Source of the DNA: Isurus oxyrinchus
Lineage: Eukaryota
Length of the DNA: 64,000 bases
Reading direction: 5' to 3'
Assembly (NCBI GenBank): GCA_026770705.1
Contig: JANJGN010000034.1
Coordinates: forward strand, 11,470,001-11,534,000
Shown in pieces: positions 17,301-46,421 of the stretch; the stretch's first letter is position 1, and each line of letters begins with the position of its first letter. Under the pieces are notes generated by a model, which had not been told where the DNA came from, did not search any database, and saw only the letters and a list, made by a program, of their open reading frames with translations. The position numbers were made by a program, and so were the translations under genes.

Positions 17301-18408
17301 CGTCGAGATAACATGTAAGCTTAGGGCACTAGAAGCTTCTGCACGAATGTTGGAAATGATGAAAGTCAAAAAAGAAATGAACTCTCCTGAAACCAATTCC
17401 ACGAATACTGGCCAAGGAAATGAAAGGGGTTTGCTTTGGAATGAAGAGCATATAAAGGGGGTTTATATTAGAGTTTCAGTTATGTCATGATTTTGTGCCT
17501 TATTCAATGGTCGCCGCCCGTTTGGATGCGTATTCATGGTCGAATCGCCTTTCTGATAACATGTCCTGTTATGCACTGCCTTCCCCTGTCCTCTCCCACT
17601 CACCAATACCCAAATGGAACGCTGTCCCCTCCCCTACTCCCATTACCAGTGAACTCCATAGCTCCCATCACCAGACCCTTCTGCACTGATCTCACCAGTC
17701 CCTCTGACACGCACATCACATAGCCTGCACCACACTCCAGCCTTAGTTCCAATTCCTCGCTCCTCTCAGAATTCCATCCACAAAACTCATCCTCCTTGAC
17801 TAGTTTGCCCAGTCCTGTCACCCACTCCGATCACGTTTTCACATCCCCAGTCTAATCAACTTACACCTCTCCCACTCTGATCCCTTTAGGATCTCACAAG
17901 CAGGAAGCTAATGGGAGATAGCTGCCAACAAGAAAGAAGCGTGAATTAGAGAGTGGACTTGTAGGCTTGCTTGGTGTCTCACCAAGAGGTGTCGAGGTTT
18001 GTGTGGTTGAGGTTATAGCATTTATTGTTAACAAACAACTATATACATATCTCCAAGGTATAGCCCAAGGTATAGCTGTTTTCATGCAGACGGCTCTCAG
18101 ACTCTCTACACACTGTATACTATCATGTGACACTCTACAATCTGGGCAGTATTGCTCTCTAGTCCCATATTAACTCCTGCATGCCCAACTACACTTATAC
18201 TAAATTGAATTCGTCAATGTTCATGAGTGACATTGGGTGCACAGCTCTGGGTGGGCAGTTATCAGACTCGGCAGCCTCCCTGCACTCCTCCTGTCCTCCC
18301 CATGCGTAAACCGCATTGCTGATTGTGGTGTCTTCGCGCAAGCGCAGAGCGAAGCGCCATATCACTTGCCAGGGAAATTCTTTCGATTGTTGGCGCTCTT
18401 GTGGGCGC

Positions 18409-19185
18409 AGTGTAATCTCCACCGTCCCACACTGTCAAGGGCTTCAGTAGGAGTGATCCGTTAGGCATGAACAAGGCTGTATTGAATTGTATTTTTTTAA
18501 TTGTGAAGCTGGACAGACCGTTCCACACCAAGAATTTTGTCTTCCCGAAGTACCACAACCAAACCTTCACACCATCTGAGGGTTTAACTGAAAGAAAAAT
18601 GCGTTTCCTCCGACGGTCCCATTAATCCGATTGTTTCCTGTCAGAGACAGTAAAACCCTGGGGCACAGATGAGGAAAATAAACCCGTAATGAGAAAGGCG
18701 GTCACACTCGGCACATCGTTGGCTTTTCTGTAACGATGTTGATAGTGTAATCTCCACCGTCCGAACTGGTCACTGAATTCAGCAGGAGGGACCCGTAAGG
18801 GAGGAATAACTCAGCACGTTCATAGCGTTCAATAGTTCTACCAGAGCCTGCATGGAGCCACTTCGCGATGCTTTTGTCCCCGAATTGCCATCTCCCATTC
18901 CGCACCACAGCTGACGGCTCCACCCGAAAAATCTACAGCGTTTCCTCCCACGGTCGCTTTAATCCGACTGTGTACTGAGGAGAGAAATCCAAAATAATAA
19001 AAGCGGTCAAACTCCACACAACATACACTTTTCGAAAGTGATAATAATAACATCCACTGATTTGCCCTGAGAATCTCGTGCTGTCGTTCTTCTCCAAACC
19101 TTAGCAAGAGAGATACGAGAAAGTGATCCTCACCCACAGGTATCAATAAATAAACATGTCCCGCGATAAGTGTCAGTCTCCACAT
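18409..19185 (-). pseudogene. Gene B, copy 1: CEACAM-like leader (19185-19134) plus two IgV N-domain exons (18974-~18705, 18637-~18409), both frameshifted and truncated
   Basis: Leader MWRLTLIAGHVYLLIPV-G|gtgag. N1: VHSRIKATVGGNAVDFS/VEPSAVVRNGRWQFGDKSIAKW..RAELFLPYGSLLLNSVTSSDGGDYTI. N2: NNRINGTVGGNAF/SVKPSDGVKVWLWYFGKTK..LFMPNGSLLLKPLTVWDGGDYT. The cysteine-less IgV with GSLLL..V...D.G.YT is the CEACAM N-domain signature. Confidence 0.88.
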
Positions 19186-19209
19186 CCCGAGAGAAACGCG
19201 CAAGTCCCT

Positions 19210-19300
19210 ATTACACTCGGTGACCGATCCGCTCTCCCGCTGTACAGGTCAGATCAATTTAATCGTTTACTGAAGTAGCAATACTGATTGGACCGTGGCT
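19210..19300 (-). promoter_or_regulatory. Putative proximal promoter of gene B (copy 2 at ~59790-59880)
   Basis: actcggtgac..ccgc..cagatca..ctgattggaccg blocks are shared with the gene A promoter. One CCAAT box is retained and the ETS core is altered. Confidence 0.45.
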
Positions 19301-19619
19301 GGTTCATCTGTGCTGAAACTCATTCACAGATGCTGAACATTTATGTGCTGGGCATGGTTGACATCCGAAGAAAATCTACAGCGTTTCCTCCCCCCGAGTG
19401 CTGGTCACTTGCCTGGCACCTCATTCTACGGAGAGGGAGCTGCTATAATCCAATAATATATTCGAAATATTGATGCGCGTGGCGTTTCTTTTAGTGCTCA
19501 GTCGCTATTTGTTGTTTTGGCAGAGTAACATTGGAGAGTGGGTGCAGACACGATGGAGCGAGTGTCCTCCTTGTGTACCGTTAAAACTCCGTGATTCTGT
19601 GACTGAGATATTCATTCAA

Positions 19620-19930
19620 GAACAGAAAGTTACGACCTTCCCGACTGAAGCACTAAGGAACCTCCGTGAGCTGCTTCTATCCCCTGAGATTACTGCGTTC
19701 CTCCAATTCCCATCTCTGGTACATCCCAGATTTTAAGCACTCTACAATGGTGAACCTGCTGCTCAGTTCCCTCATTCCTAAGCTCTGGGAATCTGCTCCC
19801 GAACTTTTCCACCTCTCTACCTCTATGTACTCAAGACCCTCCCTAAAAACTTCCCCTTTGACCAATGTTTTAGACAACTGTCCTAATGTCTTCTGCTTTT
19901 GCCCGGGTTCAAAATTGATTACGTAACAGG
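19620..19930 (+). mobile_element. L2-type 3' tail remnant (related copy at ~4640-4980)
   Basis: The two copies resemble each other: ctccgtgagc..cccctga.at.actgcg..cctccaattc..ttccac.tctctacctct..aaaac.t.ccctt. Confidence 0.55.
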
Positions 19931-19939
19931 ACTACGAAC

Positions 19940-21048
19940 TGTTACGACTGGAGCCGATGTAATTTACTGAGCAAACCAATCCCCAGTGAGAAATTTGTAT
20001 GACTGATGATAAACTTTTTAACGAGGGAAAAGACGGCTGATCCCAGAAGCACAGAATACCAGTAACACTTCTATTACTTAAAGATTTAAAATACTGTTAA
20101 CAACAAGAAAAAAAAGCTTAAGCACACAAGATTAAAGTTGCAGAGTTAAAACAATTTTACAAAACATCCTTCCTCCCACCACCCCCCCAAAGCACCCGCT
20201 TCGTCAGAACACTCAAGTGAACTCCTTGGCAACAGCTCCCATATAGATTTAAACTATTAAAATCCTTTACTATTACCCAATCCATGAACTGCAGGCACGT
20301 TAGTAAAGAGACATGACAAGACTTCTCATTCTCTTCCATTGCTGGGAAATCCAATAAAGTTCAGGAAACAAACTGTTGTCTGAGATAAAGACTTTTCTGG
20401 TCCCACTGGCTGATTGTTTCAGGTTTCACAGCTTTTCTCAGCAGAGTTGGTCTCAGGGCTTACACGCAACAAACCCTTCCCCATACACAGAGCCACGACT
20501 ACTCATCTAAACATGTTTCCTTAAATATCTTTTTTTTACCTTTCATCTTAGCTCTCATTGCTCTCAAACGCCTCTTTGAACTCATTTTTTTCCAAACTAT
20601 GAAAATTTTTCATGATTACCTATTGCCTCTACTTTCGTGTCAAATATAATTGAGTAGTTTACCCTTGTTTGCTTATGAACTCTTTGTAAACTGTTAAAGT
20701 CCCTTTTCACTTCTTTGAAATCCAACAGCTGATAAGTGAAGACGCGATGTATCTCATAATGCAAATTGTAAATCCACTTCATTGGCGCCCCACATTACAA
20801 ATGCATGTGTCTAGCGAAATTACACTTCTTTCTCTCAACTCCCAAGAAAAATTGCCTATATGAACAACTTAATTAANNNNNNNNNNNNNNNNNNNNNNNN
20901 NNNNNNNNNNNNNNNNNNNNNNNNNNNNNNNNNNNNNNNNNNNNNNNNNNNNNNNNNNNNNNNNNNNNNNNNNNNNNNNNNNNNNNNNNNNNNNNNNNNN
21001 NNNNNNNNNNNNNNNNNNNNNNNNNNNNNNNNNNNNNNNNNNTTGACA
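19940..21048. mobile_element. Possible solo LTR containing the N run
   Basis: Begins tgttacg and ends ttgaca (TG..CA, imperfect inverted termini), AT-rich, no ORF. No clear TSD. Confidence 0.35.
20877..21042. other. N run, 166 nt
   Basis: Undetermined or masked bases. Confidence 0.99.
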
Positions 21049-24000
21049 GGATATCATCATACTCCCTTACAATTAAAAACAATCACGTTCATCGTCTTAC
21101 CTCCCTCAAGGTAAAAAATCTGAAACGTTTATTTCAAAAAGACGTTTTCATTTGATCAACTCACTTCGTATTACTTCCTATTCATATCTAAATAAAAAAT
21201 ACTGTTACACTAGGGTGCTCATGCATCAACCATGAATAAATAAACAATTGTTTTGTAAGAGTAAAGTTCATTCCAATCCATTCACAATTTACCAACATCC
21301 AAGCAATTTTGAATGTTAGCTCTTGGCAGCGCATCTGCAATTAAATTCTCTCGCCCAACCACGAGCATCATTTTTAAATTGAACATTTGCAATAACAAAT
21401 TCCACCAGAACAGTCTGGTGTCTTGGTCTCGAAACTCTTCCAGAAACTACAAAGGATTATACTTAGCATATAAACCTGTCTCTGAAGTGTTGTTTGCACA
21501 TACACATTGAAATGATAGAAAGCTAAACCCAAACTTAAAGTCTCCTTTTCTAGAGCTGAGTGTTTCTTCTGATGCATATTCAAATGTGAGACATGTCCTG
21601 CTGGTTTCTCAAGTCCCAGTTCACTTTCCTGTAATGACATAGCGTCAACATCCACATTTCTACACCGCACATTTACCTGGATGATACCATGGAATAAATG
21701 GTTGAATTATGGAGATTATGTGATCTTCCATTTCATGAGCTTTGGAAGCTGGTGGAAGATCTGAATGGGAAGTTTAATATTATAAGCGGACCTAGTTGAT
21801 AGAGAAAAAAAATTGCCTCTGCACGGAGGATCAAGGTTACCAAGACATAGTCTAAATTTTGAAGTTGCTTCGAGGGGAATGAGCGTTTTTCATATGTTGC
21901 TCATCACTAGTGCACCAGAAGCTATTAACGGTCTTCTAATTAAAGTACTGAGTTGAACAACAGAGCAGAGGTGTGGCTGGAGGCCATAATGTTTCACCGT
22001 CATAGGCTGCAGGAGGCTTAGAGGAAAGGGCTCAGTGATCAAAGTAACAAAGTGTGACATCTGAAAATGATTACGGCATTGGTATTGCTCTGTCAGACAG
22101 GAAAACCGACTTCCAGAAAGAGAGACAGTGATGGATGATGCGAAAATGAATGGTGCTTATCATTACTTTCTAGAGTGATCCGAGAGTAATTCGGCAGCTT
22201 CGGTGCGGCAATGTGATGCTTGATGTATCCCACTGAGATTTGGTTAAGTATAGCTCAACCAGCTGTGTGCAGAAACAATAATGGCAATTGCCTGATGAAA
22301 TAGAGACAGGTGTCATTGCAAATGGGACAACTGGAATTGGAAACAGCAAAGTTATTCCTGGAAACATTAGATTAAACGTGTGGATAAGTTATTGGTTGAA
22401 TACATTGCCAACTGCAGATGTTTCACGATGAATTGAAAGGAAGAGGTAAGCCAGCTGACACATTGAAAGCGGCTTCGTCAATGAAAAGCAGACATTTTGT
22501 TCTGTTTCCAGAGGAAATCAATAAGGGAAGTGGGGAGCAATTTGTAAGTGTGTGATGAAGACAATCGACGTCGGGAATCCAGTTCATAGGTGGCACTGTA
22601 TATCAATAGCAGGAATTATGTGAAGGGAGTGGTTTACTGATCTCAGAATGGGACTGACTTCAGAGGAGGGAAGGCAAACTGAGCTTAGATGCAGACTAAA
22701 ATCATAAACGCAAGCAATCGCTCATTAGAGATTGGGAAACGATATTTAATGGTGCATTATGCTGTGGCAGTTTAAAAATATATATAAAGGAGACGGAGAG
22801 AAGTCTACTGTAACAGCATCCTCATGGATTTGTTGTCCTCCTGCTGTAGCGAATCGCGAGCCAACAATGCCCTGGAAGTCAGCAAGAAGTTACGGTCTGT
22901 GGAAGCAAAATGGAAATAATTTTGATTCTAAGCATGTACAAACAATATTTGGTGAAATGCATTACTTTCGGGAAATAGCATCACTTTATTATTTTTCGTA
23001 GCAGCATTCTAAGCTGCTGCAAGGGTGAAGTCTATTGATGATGCGTCATATTATATAACCCACCAGAATCCACTTGGAAACAAGATATGATGTGTGTCCA
23101 GAAAATATAATTACTTGAATGCTGGAAATTAGTAACAATTGGATTTGTTTCTTCAGCAATGCACAGTTGGAGTTCATGCCTGATAGAGGATCATTCAATG
23201 TTATTTTAAACAATGTGTTTGAAAATTGATCTCCAATGATGTTGCTCAGGTGCGGATTCGTTGGCATAACAATAGACTCTAGGGACAGCGCATGACAGGA
23301 ACTGGTTTGCACAAACACAGGTACGGTTTACACCGTGGGTTGCAGGTTAATCAAGAGCATAAACATTGAATTTCCTACTCTCCCCATCTTCAATGTCAGA
23401 TACTTGGTAGAGCTGCTAGTAACAACATATCATATTTTCAAACATCCGAATATGATATTTACTCAGTGTGGAATCATTTGGAACTGCACTTTCTTTCCAA
23501 GCCAAGATGGTCAATATGTCCTGCAGAGGTTGGCCGCCAAAGCTCAGCAAGCCTGATAAGTGGATTCAGAAACTGCCACGCTATCTCGTGATGCCAAAAC
23601 GATAAAGTCCAGACTAGGAGATTTCACCCACCTACACCCTAAGACCATCGAAAGGACATTTTGAATTAAAATTGCCTTTATTAAATAAAGTCAGCGATGG
23701 CATCAACCCTACTCATGATGAACGTCTTCCAACAAGAAACCAGGTTATGGATAATTTAACCAACACCATATTTGGAAAGGGGAGCTGTGAGAAGTCAAAT
23801 GTTGGGTAGACATGTCTGTTCTGGCTTCATCTTTAAGTATTGTGTGCTGAGCCACAGGATCAGCAGAAAGGGCAGGACGTTAATGTCTGCAGACTGTAAA
23901 ACTATAAGGTCTTCAAGCCTGTTCCTTTTCAGGAACACCAACACTGAAAACTGATGTTCTGGTAAAGAGACTAGAAGCATTCGTGCCCTGAAAAAAGTCA

Positions 24001-24084
24001 ATCTCTTCGATAGAATCCTGATAACCACCTCAGCACGTGACTCCGGCTGTTGAACTTAGTTTCAGAGCCTGAGGAGAATATACT

Positions 24085-24088
24085 TCAT
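24085..24088 (-). CDS. Candidate terminal exon start of gene A (AG|A TGA = Arg-stop)
   Basis: tttttaaaacatcag|ATGA gives a phase-2 compatible stop, with a minus-strand AATAAA near 23678. The alternative is read-through of the 25475 donor to TAA at 25433. Confidence 0.35.
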
Positions 24089-25475
24089 CTGATGTTTTAA
24101 AAAGTACATTATTCATCGTCATGACCACTGATCATGGAACCAAATTACGTACGACATGTTGAAACTTTCAGTAACTATTATTTTTTTTTAATTGCCCCAC
24201 AAACATAAATTGGCTAGTACTGTAATGCCACCATTTGCCGGAAAATTCCGATGTGGATTGCACTTGTCCAAATAGTCCAAAAGACAGAATATTGCACCTA
24301 ATCAATGTTTTCCAGAATAGGGCAGTCACGTCAATCATGAATTAATCATTTTCTTTATAACTTTTAGAAGAGCACTAGGCACTTCAATTGCACATTCTCT
24401 GAGTGTATATTTGCATGTAAATGTGTGAGTAAAGGCTATAATGTTAGATTGAGCGTGAAAATAAGCAATTATCTTTATTTAAACGCACAATCAGGAGGCT
24501 ACCGGTTATTCAACTTGTCCACACTTTCAAGGGATAATAAACACGTGTCTTTCCTTCAGAATTTTACTGATTACAGACAACTGGGAAGGGAGCAGAGATT
24601 TCCCTGCTTCTCTCGGTCACACTGTCCGTAACAGCCTCCGCCCACATCCCACCAGCTCATGTCATGCTTCCCAAGGCGCGGGACAAATTGAAGCTAACTT
24701 CACCCATATCTTTGGTGTTCATTACGTGGCATGGGCTTATCACTGGAATCAAGAGTGATCACGAATCTGGAGCATTAATACTGTTACCTTAAATCAGCTT
24801 TCTCAGTTTGTGCTTTGTTTGCATTTTGCAAGGGAGACTTAAGTTTTTGGCCCACAGCAACAACATTTTGCATAACTAGCCAAAGATAAACACTCAGTTC
24901 ACAATATAATCAAACTACAAGTGTTATTCTCAACCGCACACCCCGAGTTCAACCTCCTCAGTGGCAAGTGTTTAAACTGGACTCACGAGATAGGGTCATT
25001 TGTGAGCCCACAGAGAAAACAATTGCCATAAAATTATTATTATTTTGTTGTAAAGCCTGACGAGTTCAGTAATGCCCTTAGTGGCAAATAGCATTTCACG
25101 CCATTCACTCTATATCAAGTTATAAGTTTTGGCAACCACTGAATACTATGAGGACACCTGGAGATCACAATTGAACACTGCCTTGTCATGTGATATTCCT
25201 GCCTTGTGAAGAAATGAGGAGACATGACGCTGTGGAAACTGAAAGGAAGGCTCCCCTTTGAGGGAGAAAGTGGATCAATGAGACAGAGTTTTAAAATAAG
25301 GGTCATAATCAGTGCAGCCACGAACTTATTAAATAGTGGAGGAGATTGGAAGGAGCCGAATGGATTTCTCAGGCTCCTGATTCGTCTGCACGTTTGTTCT
25401 TAAATGGAAAATCCTACATTCCGTTTGCTTTTTTAAAAGATGGCAGATGACGTATGAAATGTTCTTTCAACATAC

Positions 25476-25519
25476 CTCATCAAGTCACTGTAAACCGACC
25501 GATCGTGCACTTGTAATCC
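25476..25519 (-). CDS. Gene A cytoplasmic exon 4 (second half of ITAM)
   Basis: ttaacag|GLQVHDRSVYSDLM-AG|gtatgt; 44 nt. Completes YMGL-x7-YSDL. Confidence 0.85.
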
Positions 25520-25649
25520 CTGTTAAAATTAATAATATATTTGTTTTTTTAGTGAACAACAATAGAGTGCGTTAAAAGAGAACTGAGGTGAAATATAGGA
25601 TAAATAGTCAGTGAATGAAATAAAAGAATGCACAAAAAAATATCCTGAC

Positions 25650-25691
25650 CATATAAGTAGAGTCTTCCTCAAGTGGTTTTGTAGCTTGCTC
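25650..25691 (-). CDS. Gene A cytoplasmic exon 3 (first ITAM tyrosine)
   Basis: tttacag|EQATKPLEEDSTYM|gtcagg; 42 nt, phase 0 to 0. Confidence 0.85.
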
Positions 25692-26167
25692 CTGTAAAAA
25701 TGCAATTTGAAAAACGATGTATAAGCAGGTACACAAGAAATCCATGTGATTACTTCATAATTTAGAACGATTAGAATGTCATATATCCCACAATAAAAGT
25801 TATACCAATTTCCCTAAAATAAATAGCCCCAAATTACATTTCAGGGGTGAATGTTCATTACTAGCACGTGGTGAAAGAGGAGCAACAGCGCACAGAATAT
25901 TCATTTCACTCAGCACTCGGTTATCATGACTGTGGTAAAATTGAAAATTGACGCCAATATTCCATGCTGCAACAGGAGCATTGTTTGATAATCTTATAAA
26001 AACAGGAACCAGTCCACTAACCGAGTAAGGCAAAGAACACCGAAACCCCTACCCTAGTCTAACTTATTGCCAAATCGAGTTTACTCCGACTGCATGAACA
26101 TTGATATTGTTATCCTCACTGGAATGAACTCGCCAATGTGACCATGTTTTAATACAATTGTACCAAC

Positions 26168-26232
26168 CTTTTGCTTTCTTGGAATATTTTCGTAGGCTGA
26201 TGCTGAATTCTCCCCTATTGCAGCAGGGCTGC
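26168..26232 (-). CDS. Gene A cytoplasmic exon 2 (intact; SAYENI motif)
   Basis: ctcacag|(S)SPAAIGENSASAYENIPRKQK|gttggt; 65 nt, phase 1 to 0. Confidence 0.8.
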
Positions 26233-27629
26233 CTGTGAGAATGAAAAACAGTTAATCACATCTCCACATATAATCACAGAATCATACAATGACAGAGCAC
26301 AATCGGAGGTCATTTAGCCCACCATGCCAGTATCAGCTCTTTGAAGGTGAAATACAATTAATCCCATTCCTCAGCCATTTTCTCACACCCTTGTAAGTAA
26401 GTTTCCTTAACGTGCATATCCAATGTCCTTGTCAAACTGATATTCAATATGATTCCAACAAATGTTTATGTTATGCAACCCGATCATAGCAATTCGCTGC
26501 CTAAATAAAAAATTACACCTCACGCAGCTGTCTTTTTGGGAACTAGATTTCATTTTTACCACCTATGGCTGCTTACAGTTTCTCCTAATTTCCTCTATCA
26601 CGATATTTCCCGATTTTGAACACCTCTGTAAAATCTCCCATCAGCCTCCCTGCTTTAAGGAGAATAAGCCGAGCTACTCCCATTCTTCCACGGAGCTAAA
26701 GTCCTACATCTCTGGTGCTATTTCTGTAAATGTTCAGTACACACTCCTCAAGACAGTAACATTAGTCCTGAATCATTGAACCATGTACATGCCAATAGAG
26801 TGAGAACGGTTGCTTCATGTTCTGAGGCATTGCAGCTTTTGTTTCTTAGTTTTCTCTTTCTGTTTTCTGGGGTGGACTCCGTTCGTGCTAATTTAATGAT
26901 TTCTTGAGTTGTCGGGTCAATTTTACGAACTAAGGGTACACTTGGAACAGCCGTAATCAAGGAATGAAAATTGGTGGGAATCTAGTTCTACGTTTTTCAA
27001 TATAACGCAGAAGAGATATCAAATCGGCTGCTGGTTCGCCATCATCTATTCTACATTAGAGAGATGGGCGCAATTGTCCTAGGTATTTCATCATGTGGGT
27101 GTTCCTGAAGCTGACAGATTCACACTTTGAGCACCCAAGTAGCAGAAAACACAATGGTTAGTTCCAGGCAAAACCTTTGTCTCAACGTCAGCTCTGTATG
27201 TGTACACAAATCTATTCGGTTTTGAACTTTCACGAGGAATGTGCAACTCACTGTAAAATGAAGCTTTCGCATGAAAATAGATACAGAAGCATATATTGGA
27301 TGTTATTGGTGTCAACGTATTTTCAGTCAGATATAATTTGCATGAACGATTGCTTCTTTTCACCATTCACAAGTTAGTGAAACCTATATTAAACAGAATG
27401 TTGAGCGATAGCCATGTTGATCCGAACTTCTTTTAAAATAGCGTTTAGCTGTTAGGCAATTGTGCCTAAAAGTGCTCAACAAGAACAAGTTTATCTACAT
27501 TGATGTGCAAACGCAAAGATTCATAAGTCTGCCCGATGTATGCTTATTTGAATGAACTTCAACTCATAAAGCACTATTGACCCCTGCAACCATACATTCA
27601 ACATGGAAATGCTAAAGTATTTCACTTAC

Positions 27630-27685
27630 TATTTTCTGTTGGACTAATGTTCGTTGCAATTTGCCCTTGCGTTGGTTGTTGCTTC
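27630..27685 (-). CDS. Gene A cytoplasmic exon 1 (intact)
   Basis: tctttag|(W)KQQPTQGQIATNISPTEN-A|gtaagt; 56 nt, phase 2 to 1, matching both neighbours. Confidence 0.8.
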
Positions 27686-28268
27686 CTAAAGAAATGTAGT
27701 GCAACATAATAAAATAAACATTTTCAGGACGATATAATATTGCAATCATGATCTGCAACAGAAATCCTATTTGATAATGTCTTATTATTAGTGAAAAATA
27801 TCTTCCTAACTGGAAGGAACAAATTTCATCATGCTGGGCAACATCGACATTATTTTATTCTTTTATGGGACGTGTCGTCGTTAGCTGAGCCAGCATTTTT
27901 TATTGCCTATCCCTAATTGCCCTTGAGAAGACGGTTGTGAGCTGTCTTCCTGTGCCGCTGCTGTCCATATGGCGCAGGAGCACCTAAAACAGTTTGAGTA
28001 TTTGGAAGATGCAAAACTAAGTAACTGCATCAGCAACAGTAGTGGAGCGTTATCATATAAGAGTGGGGAACTAACAGTAGGTGATTTTTGTCAATCAGAA
28101 ATATAAACGATTATTATTGACTGTGTAAACCTGACTTATAAGTATATAGACTTGGACAGAGACATAAACATATTTTGAAACAACCTTTCGCGCATTTCCT
28201 TTGATTCAATTCATCAGGCTATAGACAAACTACTAAAGGTGCAGATAACATTTACATAGACTATTTAC

Positions 28269-28392
28269 CAGCATACTTTCTTTTTGATCAGCCACGCGCT
28301 TATCCCGCCGATCATTCCCAGAATAAGTAGAACAGCAATCACGATGCCTGCTTTGTGACCACTGCCTAATTCAGTGGTGGAGGAATGTTGTC
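28269..28392 (-). CDS. Gene A transmembrane exon (intact)
   Basis: ttttcag|(x)QHSSTTELGSGHKAGIVIAVLLILGMIGGISAWLIKKKVC-TG|gtaaat; 124 nt, phase 1 to 2. AGIVI start resembles the CEACAM1 TM; KKK stop-transfer cluster follows. Confidence 0.9.
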
Positions 28393-31300
28393 CTGAAAAT
28401 GCAATAAGAACAGATATTGAAATGAATATCAAATGCCGGAATCAATTAAACTCCTGTAGCAATGGGCCGGTATTTAAACACATTTTGCCATAACGCTTGA
28501 TTGCTGCTAAACTTCAACATTCCAAGGAATAAAAATGGCCATCACAGTGTTCTTTCGAGCGAATGTGACACGTCATTTAAATACAAGCCTCTGCAGCTGC
28601 AAGGACAACCAGGTAATTGAGTTTTTACGCTCTTGATCTCAAAATATTTTAAAAATTTCTCTCTACAGCTCTTAATGGGCCAATCAAGTGCTGAGCATCA
28701 AGGAATGCAATCCCGACTGTTGGCCGTGTTGTCTTCCAATTTTTCAGGAAGCATTTCGTTTGATTCCCAAAAATATTAATTCCTTTCCTCAACTGAAGCC
28801 TACATTTCACATCTTGTCAACTTCCATTTTCTTGTGCCTTGAAACCAGGTGGATTTCCCTTGGCAATCCCCTTCTGTTTCTCATCTACCTCATGCATCAG
28901 TGGCAACATGCCAAAACATATAGCTAAATTTTATGGGGCGCTGTGGTCCCCATACCCAGGAGTGAATAAATCGGGAACCAGCCAATCCGCACTTCTGGCC
29001 CCTGCATGGAAATTCCTATGCCGAGCAGACAATTGAGGGATAAGAGTGGTGTTGGGGTGGGAGAGGGGCTGAAGTGGACAAGCCAGTGTCGGGAGAGGAA
29101 CAGGGAGACGGAAGACCTGCCGGTCCCGCCAACGCGCTATAAAATTAGCCACATCTACATTCTTGAAAACAGGGTGCTAGTCATTTGCCCATCGTCAAAA
29201 TGGATGCAGAAACTGGCTGCATTAAATCTATTCCTCAGGGAAATGTTCACTGTGTAATGGACAAAGTCTCAATGGGCCAAACTCCGCCACTTTAGGACGA
29301 GGAAAGTGTGCTTTCTAACTCAAGTTACCCGGGAAAGGCAACATTTCTCAAAACTTTGACAATCCGGAAAAGCAAGCCGTTCCCGCTGCTACCATGCAGT
29401 GCCTCCGTGAATGGTACTTTCCACTAACAAGATGCTGCCTCAGCCCAAAAAGAATGCTCTGCCTATCACACAACTGAGCACCGCCATGCATCAAATGCAG
29501 TGCCGTTGTGATGCCATCTGAATAAACCGTATGTCCCAGTGATTGGCTGATCGAATCAAGCAGCATGTTATATTGGTTGTGCATAAGAGTGTTAAACGTT
29601 AAAAACAATGGTAAAAGTAGAGCCTAGGGAACAGATACTGGTATCTTGAAGCAGCATAACCTAATATGGCCAAACTGAAACCTAAATATAATTTTGATAT
29701 GCACAGTACGTCTTTAATCTGGAAATCTGTAATAGCAATGCTTTTTATTCCGACGATGCATTTGGCAACAACTCACTTTGCACATCCTCTTGTGTGTTGA
29801 GTTTCTCTGGGCCACTGACTAAATCCAAGTGACCCTGTCCTCCAAAAGGAGAGCAGCGCTAACACAGAACAACTGAACCCACAAATGATAACGTGTATGG
29901 CGGTAAAGTGGCATTAGTGTAGCAGAATTGAGTTCCCACAGCTATATACATTCTTACAGCAATGAATGGCTCTCCCTCTTTAGTGTACTGGAGACCGACA
30001 ATCTATAGGCAAGCGAGGGAATTCATGCCTTTGATGATTAAGACTACAGCCCTATATCTGCGAAATGCTGAGTCAAGCACAGTGGTTTGCTTATTGAAGC
30101 CACGCTCTAATTGCACCAAGCAAAGCAAGGGGGAAAACAGCCCAGTAATAATTATTTTTATATATATATTTGGTCACTCAAAGATCAAACGTAAGATTTT
30201 TCACACAAGAAAATCAGCGCTTCTAATTTGAGGAGAAATATTTGTCGAAGCATGTCAGAAATAGTTATTTTTAAAATAGCATTGGTGTATGTAATCGGGA
30301 AATCATTGCATGAGCAAAATTTATTTGTATTTTTGCTTCGCAGTCTTCAAACTGAGCATGTTACTGCATAAATAACAGATGTTTATGTATTTCGGTAATA
30401 AAATGTCAGAGCCTCTCCATGCACATGGAACCCGATTACCGAGTCTCTGCTCATTCTTACAAACTTCAACAGTTCACCTCTTCGCAAAATTCATACTCAA
30501 GTAAATATTAATGATGTCACATGCTTTCGGGAAAAAGAACATCTAAGTTTAGCGAAGTCGCGGATTTTCGGCAGCCAAAGCACAATTTAAATAAATTCAC
30601 AAGTAAACACCAGAATTGTGAAATTGAACCTGGGAGGGACGTAAACCAGGTAATATTATATATATTTCCAGTTACAAGCCTCGCACTAAATTCAGGTCCA
30701 TTTAAGTATATGAAGTTCATTATTGAACGTGGTGAATAACAAGAGAGAAATGCAACACCACCCAGCATGCATCCTTGTCCGGTCTAATATCCCTCGCTAA
30801 TTATTGGCGCACAAACATTTTAGGATGAGTCGATGTCTACATGATAAATATCCGAAATATGAGTGCATGTTAACAATTGTGTTTCAGCTTGTTACAGTCT
30901 ATATCTATTCTGGTTGTGGTTGACTTGCAGTAACACAGCACAAGTTTGAACCATCCCTGCTTAATTCAGTTTTTATTTGTAATAAAAAACTTGCAAATAC
31001 CAGTCAGCATGAATAGAGAAAAGATATAATCCTGCATGATCAATCTGGATGAAGCTACTTGTGAAAAACCTTGGAAAGGGCAATGCAGAGCGTTTCCTCG
31101 AACTGTAAGCAAGATTTCAGAAAAGTGTCAGTCAGAAGCAGAAGAGTTAATTACAAGCATCGGGGCTACGGGCCCTGGGTTACCAAAAGAATTAAACAGG
31201 CTGCAACGTTCAACAATGTACGCTGACATTTTTTGAAACATGCAAGGAAGAAGACCATTCGGCCCAAGGTGCCTTGCAGACTCATTCAACTGTCCATCCA

Positions 31301-43239: not shown

Positions 43240-45889
43240 CTGTCAAAACACAGGAAAGTAGGTATCAGACCTTAAAAGTAAATTTGGAGGATGGTGGATT
43301 TAGCTCCAAGTTCTAAAGGCAGCATTTCATTTTGAATTTTCATCTGTTGTTTCCTTGCGGTAATAATTCCTGTGATGCTGGTGTTAATAATTCTACGATC
43401 ATTATCCCCACCCCACTACCCCCACGCAACCCCCACCTCCCCCTCACCACACGTGCCCCGCACACCCACACCCTCCGCCCCCAACGAGGTAAACCTGTCT
43501 CCTTGAATTTATTGCTCACTTAGAATATCAACTTAAATAAATTTCCAATCATGAAAGGAACATAGCCTACTAAACCAATTACAGACTCGGTCCTAAAATA
43601 AAATGTCCTCTCCCCGAAGACCTCGAACCTAATGTATTTATTTGAAGATAGAACATGCGTAGAGGTATCTTATAGCAGACTGAACTATTGTGGAGTTTCC
43701 CAAAATCAGCTCTTCGGATTCTAACTTCGACTCCAAGGATATTTTGATCATGTATGTGGGCTCGCGGGAGAATATAGTTTGGAGACTGCAACTCTTGTGC
43801 ACTTACTTAATACATGTTTTAAATCAAATCCAAATATATATTACAGCTAATACATGAAACATATAGATGATAACTAAATCAAATCATATCATCTCAATAA
43901 TATTTAAGGGAAATACATTTTAACCCACCATAATCAGCAGTTTTTTTTGCATAAAAAACAAATATCAATTAAAGGTAATCATACGCACAAACCATTGTAA
44001 TTACTCAAGATTCTGGAGAGTCTTTGTCTCAAATATAGGGATTCCAAGCTTAGACTGATACTCATTCTATGGCTGCAAAGAAGGCCAAAAGATTGTTGAC
44101 CTATGGGCACCATTACCATCTGTCTGTTTAGAAACATCGCAGCTGAACACAAAAAGGCTTTCGTTATGCATTGGTGTTTGTGATTCCAAAAGAAAAAGCA
44201 GTGAATGAAAATAAGCTATTTATCGGATCAATGTCATTGGTGAGTATAGATAAGAGACATTTACAGACTAAATGGAAACATTTTGGTTGGCAGCCTTTCA
44301 AATAGTAGAGAGACAATCCAAAGGCTTTTTTGGTTATCTTTGGACTTGACATCCTCGCAACGATTCATGTAGTGTATCCATGCTATAATATCAAGCTATA
44401 TGCCTAATTGCTTTCCTCTATTAATGTTAATTAGTGCGTCTTAAATTTGCAATAATTGTGTCAGGTTTGTCACACGGTGAACTTAAACCGTGCAAGATCT
44501 ATCTGTTGATCCCTGAGATTCAGACTGCGCAGCAGAGACCTGGACTCCAGTAATATAACATTCTGCCCTTCTCATCATTCTCAAAATAAGAGCCAAACTA
44601 CTCACTGCAATAAAAAAAGTTTCTCCTCATAATACTTTTGTTTATTTTATTGATTACTTTAAATTGGTGTCCTCACGTTCTCGATCCATTTCTACTGGGA
44701 ATAGGTTCTCCCTAACTACTCTATCCAAACCCCTCACTATTCTGATACCTCCATGGAGCAGTTCCACTGGTGAGAAACCTACAGCTGGAATTGCAGCTCG
44801 ATGGCGCAGCTGGGCTGAGTGCCAGTCAGAAATCGGGCTCCAGAGGCTCTTGATGTTTCTCACTGCTCGCTCAGCCTCTCCGTAGCTTGGAAACGGACAG
44901 GCAACTGCTGACAAGAGCGATCCCATTGAGCTTGGCAAATTTTCTAAAGTGCTCATGCAAGGATTGTGGTCTGCAGTGAGACGGTTTTATCTGGAAACCC
45001 ATGTGTGTAAAGTATGGCCAGCAGCATCTTGCACGGTTGTGATATTTGAACAACTTGTTTGGAAAAGGTCAGGACACCGGAACATTTCACACAAAAATGC
45101 CGAAGACACGAGATATTACTCCCAGATCAAGAACTGGCACGTTGCATGGTGCTGCGCCAACCCAGTTAAGTGGGACCGCTGATTGTCTCCCGCTCCAGCA
45201 ATGTCTCAAGTTTGAAAAGGTTAAATGGCACTAAGTCCGAGTCACCTCTTAATCTCCGTGAGCCCCTTCTGTCCCCTGAAATCACGGCGATCCTCCAATT
45301 CTGGTCTCTGAATTACCCCGAACATTAATCACTCTTTCACGGTCGGACATTGCTGTTCACCTGCCTCAGTCCTAAATTCAAGAAATCCGATCCTGAACAT
45401 TTCCACTTCTCTACCTCTCCCTGTACAATAAGCAGCTTAAAACCGTTCCCTTTCACCGAGGTAACAGTCACTTGTCCTCTTTTTTTGCCCGGTGTCAAAT
45501 TGAATTTAGTAACAGCGCTAAGAAGCAGCTCGTGACGCTGTGTTAGGTTAAAGGGCCTATATAATTGTTAGGTTGTCTCGTTTTGTTTACTGGCCCTGTG
45601 TTATTGAAAGGATGACCTTAAATCGCCATTGGGTGGAATTTCTCCCTGAGCCGGCAGCACAAATCGGGTGCGGTCACTTTGGCCGCCCATTAAAGCCCGT
45701 CGCCGTACCCCACGGCTCTTCCCCACACTCTGAATATCGGACCCCTCTCCGGCTTAGATCTGGTTTCCCGTTCCTATTTAGATCATTTGACCTCCTGGCG
45801 AGCAGGAGGCTAACGGAAGACGGCCGGCGACAGGGAAGTAATGCGATAAAGGCCGCAGACTCCTTCTACGTTCAACTGCGGCAGCAACA

Positions 45890-46341: not shown

Positions 46342-46421
46342 CTTTATCCATTAATAAGCAAAGAGCGACCACAGTTAAAAGGGGTCTGATCAACCCAAGA
46401 AAACCTCGCCCACTGTCACAC
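46342..46421 (-). pseudogene. Gene A leader (signal peptide) exon, copy 2; start codon lost
   Basis: Reads DSGRGFLGLIRPLLTVVALCLLMDK-G|gtgagt (phase-1 donor). The position of the copy-1 ATG is GTG here, followed by TGA. Confidence 0.75.

Follow-up and report, generated by a model that had tools for sequence, protein, structure and literature searches.

A probable young chimeric pseudogene with an intact TM-ITAM tail in a shark CEACAM cluster

Human CEACAM3 and CEACAM4 are composed of a single IgV-like N domain, a transmembrane (TM) segment and an ITAM, with no IgC domain in the protein, and CEACAM3 itself was proposed to have arisen by recombination between an N exon and a TM/ITAM block (accessible text of PMC7026191). 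In Xenopus, paired ceacam receptors are encoded by oppositely oriented ITAM-type and ITIM/ITSM-type genes with near-identical N exons, in a cluster that adjoins LIPE. A phase-0 split of the first YxxL is given as a characteristic of CEACAM ITAMs in a file legend of the same source, and a YxNx motif is noted there (accessible text of PMC5112662). The cytoplasmic exons number four in mammals and three in reptiles according to the accessible part of a preprint (PMC13278318). Loss of ITAM-type genes through N-exon lesions, i.e., gibbon CEACAM3 and dog CEACAM26/27, is routine birth-and-death in the excerpts of PMC11646289 and PMC2110893, and genes with broken N exons were filed as pseudogenes in that of PMC2832619. 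The CEACAM literature drawn on, including the accessible part of PMC3628338, records CEACAMs among skate ESTs and describes paired receptors for mammals, reptiles and frogs. In the literature searched for sharks and cartilaginous fish, most subscription papers being outside its scope, no paper that analyzes a shark CEACAM cluster was found.

The locus studied here lies in a 64-kb window, i.e., the whole stretch of shark DNA that was analyzed (contig C34:11,470,001-11,534,000), and a region of 864 kb around the window was examined. Judged from the exon sequences, the parent of the window copy is a CEACAM3/4-like receptor of the form leader-N-TM-ITAM, with dead A1 and B1 exons in an intron. A working N exon, present in CEACAM3 and CEACAM4, is missing from the window copy, and the likeness is one of design. 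The shark cluster shares with that of Xenopus the opposed gene orientation, the near-identical N exons, the neighborhood of LIPE, the phase-0 split YxxL and the YxNx motif, whereas amplified N-less units are present in the shark and none are described for Xenopus in the accessible text of PMC5112662. Compared with the gibbon and dog pseudogenes, the N exon in the shark was deleted as a whole, and the dead unit, furnished with a fresh tail, is present in six copies.

The tail is encoded on the minus strand. It starts with the TM exon (28392-28269, 124 nt, phase 1 to 2), followed by the cytoplasmic exons C1 (27685-27630, 56 nt), C2 (26232-26168, 65 nt), C3 (25691-25650, 42 nt) and C4 (25519-25476, 44 nt). 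These five exons, 331 nt in total, were open, bounded by AG and GT and compatible in phase (1-2-1-0-0-2), with positions and translation as in the original prediction. A terminal exon, C5, was absent from that model. Its coding part (22896-22890, acceptor at 22896) adds two codons before the stop TAA (22892-22890), and the 3' UTR follows; the shark tail thus has five cytoplasmic exons. The TM exon product consists of a short stalk, an uncharged TM helix, i.e., a hydrophobic stretch without D, E, K or R, and a juxtamembrane KKK-x-C. Exon C2 contains YENI, a YxNx motif of the Grb2-SH2 type, which lies upstream of the ITAM and fits the YxNx motif of PMC5112662. The ITAM, DST-YM|GL-x7-YSDL, fits D/ExxYxxL/I-x6-8-YxxL/I. 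A phase-0 intron interrupts the first YxxL, inside which C3 ends, and C4 carries the remaining ITAM (YMGL-x7-YSDL).

Intact paralogs read L-N-A1-B1-A2-B2-TM, which is the CEACAM order of leader, IgV-like N and IgC-like A and B. The top PDB sequence matches were CEA/CEACAM1 for A1 and CEACAM1 for N. The Pfam V-set match of the N exon was below the curated cut-off, and Pfam by itself could not name the family. Cysteine was absent from all nine intact N exons. An N domain without cysteines is a feature of the CEACAM family. Synteny with LIPE was found by HSL_N matches at C34:12,436,902-12,455,631, about 0.47 Mb past the cluster, and the closest database proteins were CEACAM-like models of the white shark and the basking shark (80-86%), which makes a lamniform shark the likely source. 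The window copy lacks the intact N exon and the leader start codon of a functional ITAM-bearing CEACAM. The orphan tails belong to the ITAM-bearing CEACAM kind, probably as pseudogene copies.

In other sharks, N-TM-ITAM proteins without A/B domains are annotated by automatic models in Heptranchias, Mustelus and Hemiscyllium. In the white shark, XP_041032829.1 is an automatically annotated CEACAM4-like leader-N-TM-ITAM protein of 235 aa with the same leader type. This protein and the multi-N models XP_041032826-8.1 resemble the window copy in leader type, TM and tail, with 14-15 of 111 tail residues different, but they have N domains and the window copy does not.

In the genome search, the TM exon had at least 13 matches, all on C34, and a 14th, decayed one was found locally. 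Three near-identical units of 73.6 kb carry the long gene, L-N-A1-B1-A2-B2-TM-ITAM. These units (C34:11645500-11857000) were 98.4-99.3% alike, with identical TM and tail exons; in their N exons, two of them stood about 6% apart from the third, and most of these differences were nonsynonymous. Exon C4 of the long form (C34:11803541-11803482 and two sisters) has 16 extra nt, by which the frame shifts after the second YxxL and the ITAM is kept; white-shark and basking-shark proteins end like this extended C4.

Two short-form genes with intact N exons are the N-bearing neighbors of the window copy. The multi-N neighbor has four N cassettes at C34 11,608-11,601k and its TM exon at 11,584k, i.e., four different intact tandem N exons (C34:11608477-11601105) upstream of one TM-ITAM tail. 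Each of the four is preceded by a leader-like exon, three with ATG and the fourth with ATA. In white-shark models, such N exons are joined into a single protein, and alternative leader-N cassettes on a common tail are also possible. The single-N neighbor has its N exon at C34:11,559,553 and its TM exon at 11,538,952, and its 3' end lies in the window (64000-61625, minus strand, C5 at about 63484). Next come six tandem N-less (orphan) units of 41 kb with a TM spacing of 41.3-41.5 kb, the window copy being the first. The 5' half of the next orphan unit, with the same leader, degenerate N, deletion junction and dead A1, lies at 20876-1 (minus strand) together with its pseudogene B. A separate pseudogene B was located at 59764-58990 (minus strand), in which two broken N exons come after an open leader (59764-59713). 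Three further tails in the cluster were decayed.

An inverted CEACAM1-like gene (C34:11875710-11967670, plus strand, leader at 11,875,710) stands head to head with the ITAM genes. It has several A/B exons, a 53-nt first cytoplasmic exon and a terminal ITSM-like TDYAEL motif. Its leader region was identical to that of one long ITAM gene over 132 nt, and the N exons of the two were 95.6% identical. Together with the ITAM genes it looks like a paired-receptor system in the shark. In the nine intact N exons, mean pN was 0.067 against a pS of 0.040, over 36 non-independent, uncorrected pairs. By analogy with CEACAM3/4, the intact parents may be activating decoy or phagocytic receptors whose N domain binds ligand. 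Phosphorylation of the ITAM by Src-family kinases would be followed by the recruitment of Syk- and Grb2-type SH2 proteins. The parents may be paired, as activating decoys, with the inverted gene, and the identity of leader and N is in line with this.

The original prediction described an intact tail attached to a dead CEACAM ectodomain, with several lesions in each of the N, A and B exons. No intact Ig exon was found in the ORF listing of the 64-kb window. The dead A1 exon (43239-42946, minus strand) has insertions of 4 and 14 nt, which are common to the six orphan units, a stop and a GT>GC donor. The dead B1 exon (39626-39363, minus strand) has an acceptor changed from AG to AC, a 1-nt deletion, a TAG and a 1-nt insertion. 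The A1 donor change and the TGG>TAG of B1 were found in all eight short-form units, i.e., the six orphans and the two N-bearing neighbors. A1 and B1 were therefore inactivated before the split from these neighbors, and a working parent would skip them. Because these exons were already inactive in N-bearing relatives, the contrast of a live tail with dead A/B exons is a weak premise.

The broken N exon has another history. This old degenerate exon (46175 to about 45800, minus strand), with a C-rich insertion, a TGA and a 9-nt deletion, also precedes the intact N exons in both N-bearing neighbors, and it was mistaken for the N exon of the gene. The working cassette was removed at a deletion junction, 45100/45099 (minus strand), where 1,851 bp are missing compared with C34:11560264-11558414, including an intact leader and N. 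The junction joins neighbor positions 11,560,265 and 11,558,413 and is identical in all six orphan units. Broken N, A1 and B1 are three separate histories and not one dead ectodomain; of the predicted dead ectodomain, A1 and B1 stand. Just downstream of the junction, about 700 bp are missing at 45037-45038 in the unit of the window only, and two orphan units have a further small insertion.

The leader exon (46393-46342, minus strand, 52 nt) is of the type used in white-shark models and retains an intact phase-1 GT donor. Its initiator was changed from ATG to TTG in the six orphan units, and ATG was found in both N-bearing neighbors. The leader had been predicted to lack an in-frame ATG; the initiator is indeed lost, yet an in-frame ATG is left at 46351. 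A CCAAT element lies at about 46509-46505.

For an intact tail in such a gene, the original prediction offered three readings, i.e., a module still used by splicing from an upstream exon, a chimera of an old dead 5' half with the 3' half of a functional paralog, and chance given the short exons. Relationships were examined by distances and polarized counts. In the 5' half, seven blocks gave a stem divergence of 1.4-3.1% for the six orphans, and this value fell to 1.07, 0.41, 0.11 and 0.06% in four tail/3' blocks from 28,899 down. In the same four blocks, the own branch of the N-bearing neighbor dropped to 0.2-1.8%, and at 62 intron columns the alleles of both neighbors were present among the six orphans. 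From the small stem and neighbor-branch divergence and from these 62 columns, it follows that the tail was recently shared with an N-bearing gene. The tail block is young and, from these sequence comparisons, chimeric relative to the 5' half, and the contrast in stem divergence between the 5' and 3' parts supports the second reading.

The six units might also be partly an assembly expansion of fewer copies or haplotypes, and over 16-24 kb certain pairs of units are 98-99% alike. However, the tail introns were 1.0-3.7% apart in pairwise comparison, at least 313 changes were needed over 5,391 columns, and the affinities formed a mosaic along the unit. Because such divergence far exceeds sequencing error, an assembly expansion is extremely improbable.

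In the introns of the tail block (5,362 columns), 250 alleles were private to the six units. Among the exon variants confined to these units, 14 were nonsynonymous and 7 synonymous, against 13.5 and 5.0 expected from intron rates by base context. All six orphans are fixed for three bases, the first TM base G at 28392 and the changes at tail codons 44 and 103. The tail exons change at the neutral, i.e., intron, rate. The original prediction looked to dN/dS for signs of a used module; the substitutions proved to be at the neutral rate, in a test of low power. Because 11 of 111 residues differ between the tails of the two N-bearing neighbors, dN/dS is weak here. The tail of the short white-shark receptor differed from that of the nearer N-bearing neighbor at 12 residues. 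In favor of a pseudogene, by contrast, only 2 of 111 residues separated the tail of the multi-N neighbor from that of its white-shark counterpart, whereas the orphans differed mutually at up to 10.

The expected disabling events in the six tails were 1.07 stops, 1.09 splice-site losses and 0.68-0.99 frameshifts, 2.8-3.2 in total, and none were observed. The probability that all six tails are intact by chance was 0.04-0.06 (0.04 in a cruder version). This joint value is the main result against a pseudogene, and it is marginal. Because the tail was recently shared with an N-bearing gene, selection likely acted during part of the history counted, which weakens the joint probability. For the lineage of the window alone, the probability of being intact by chance was 0.24-0.28. 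Together with the neutral rate, this supports the third reading, i.e., chance and youth.

Older tails without an intact ectodomain were broken in three of three cases. At C34 11267k, the C1 donor was lost and the second ITAM tyrosine was changed to C; at C34 11630k, the C2 donor was lost and the first tyrosine was changed to D; at C34 11247k, there was a frameshift and C4 was not found. In the original prediction, decay of paralogous tails at the pace of the Ig exons would count against a used module. Decay was seen in these older tails, and the six orphan tails were intact.

Chimera and chance with youth, taken together, are likely the best explanation. We consider the window copy to be, with good probability, a young chimeric (unprocessed) pseudogene from which the working N exon was deleted and whose tail is too young to have decayed. 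In the proposed course, a short-form copy would have lost its N cassette and then decayed. Unequal crossing-over at about 29,000-28,500, just upstream of the TM exon, would have put the tail of a neighbor behind the dead 5' half. The 41-kb unit would then have been amplified, and the copies may have gone on exchanging tracts.

The intact tails could instead mean that the deletion made an ectodomain-less, LAT/NTAL-like ITAM adaptor, and that the six-fold amplification was then selected. The gene would use its own promoter and a leader spliced to the TM exon, and ATG 46351, the first in the leader, shares its frame with the entire tail, so that a start there would give a signal-peptide-less type III protein of 115 residues. 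LAT/NTAL-type adaptors are expressed proteins that have no signal peptide, a short ectodomain, a juxtamembrane cysteine and SH2 motifs. The predicted product would combine a TM helix and a tiny ectodomain with a juxtamembrane cysteine and tyrosine motifs, i.e., the YxN motif and the ITAM, whereas it would derive from a CEACAM. In DAP12/FcR-gamma-type adaptors, the TM helix has a charged residue; the helix here is uncharged and hence not of that type. The donor and the internal ATG were retained in all six units, and the CCAAT element was also retained. However, the internal ATG comes from functional leaders, so its retention is no sign of selection, and it has a T at -3. The lack of disabling changes where about three were expected across the six tails favors an adaptor, and the neutral-rate substitutions, with four private TM-exon changes among them, speak against it. 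The basking shark has an annotated stand-alone TM-ITAM locus (XP_078389778/9, 127/133 aa), but this model starts in the intron before a long-form TM exon and may be a fragment. On balance, an adaptor is unlikely. An intron-derived start before the TM exon in the style of the basking-shark model was also tried, and its frame was stopped in all eight short-form units, including that of the window.

Continued use of the tail could also take the form of alternative constant regions, i.e., orphan tails spliced from upstream N exons or from the gene-B leader. The candidate N exons would be the one at C34:11559553 or the four at 11608-11601k, skipping their own tail. All leader and N donors are of phase 1, matching the TM acceptor, and the B leader was open in eight of nine B-type copies. 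However, one has to go 61 kb upstream to reach the nearest intact N exon, and the complete tail and terminal exon that belong to this N exon lie in between. For the gene-B leader, the AG acceptors tried before its broken N all gave a stop within about 60 codons or fewer of the join. The route through this leader, which the original prediction had given as an example, found no support: it is 31 kb away and its own acceptors lead to early stops. Use of the orphan tails as constant regions is highly unlikely. The better candidate for a module still in use is the own leader of the gene with its internal ATG.

Among the runs recorded as RNA, none contained the stretch, which is evidence neither for nor against expression. 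Contigs of four out of 13 presumed-RNA runs (X8, X9, X11 and X15, from three studies and the organisms A and B) were compared with window positions 18000-29500. Among the joints listed, those at or a few bases from predicted junctions were TM-C1 (X8, X9, X15), C1-C2 (X9, X15), C2-C3 (all four runs), C3-C4 (X9) and C4-C5 (X9, X15). These joints confirm the exon model for the gene family, not for the window copy. The two TM pieces listed (X8, X11) end at 28391, which suggests a first TM base other than the G of the orphans. The C5 letters in the contigs agreed with the neighbors and two of the six orphans and differed from the window copy. Because in organisms A and B only about a quarter of the DNA words are shared and these organisms may be without orphan units, the contigs speak neither for nor against expression of the window copy. 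No joint of a B-type leader to the TM exon was among the joints listed for 18000-29500, a range that leaves out the own leader of the gene, and this was not counted against a module still in use. Between TM and C1, the intron contains a short repeat fragment of very high abundance (27897-27949), which was the main source of loose ends in the contigs.

As a pseudogene, the window copy represents ordinary birth-and-death in a fast-evolving immune cluster, with a clean record of one deletion, one chimeric junction and six copies. The surrounding cluster is more useful, i.e., the CEACAM paired-receptor layout in a shark with an inverted CEACAM1-like gene facing ITAM genes. If the tail did serve as an adaptor, a stand-alone ITAM adaptor could arise from a receptor by two mutations; a decoy receptor that lost its N exon and the start codon of its signal peptide would have been turned into a ligand-free, LAT-like adaptor.

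Two other loci were observed in the examined region. In another minus-strand gene, at C34:11224207-11213015, two N exons are open and the first cytoplasmic exon is of the type of the CEACAM1-like gene; this gene is similar to the C-terminal region of XP_078389776.1 from the basking shark. An open IgC-like exon from a different family was located at the margin of the region (C34:11150655-11150425).
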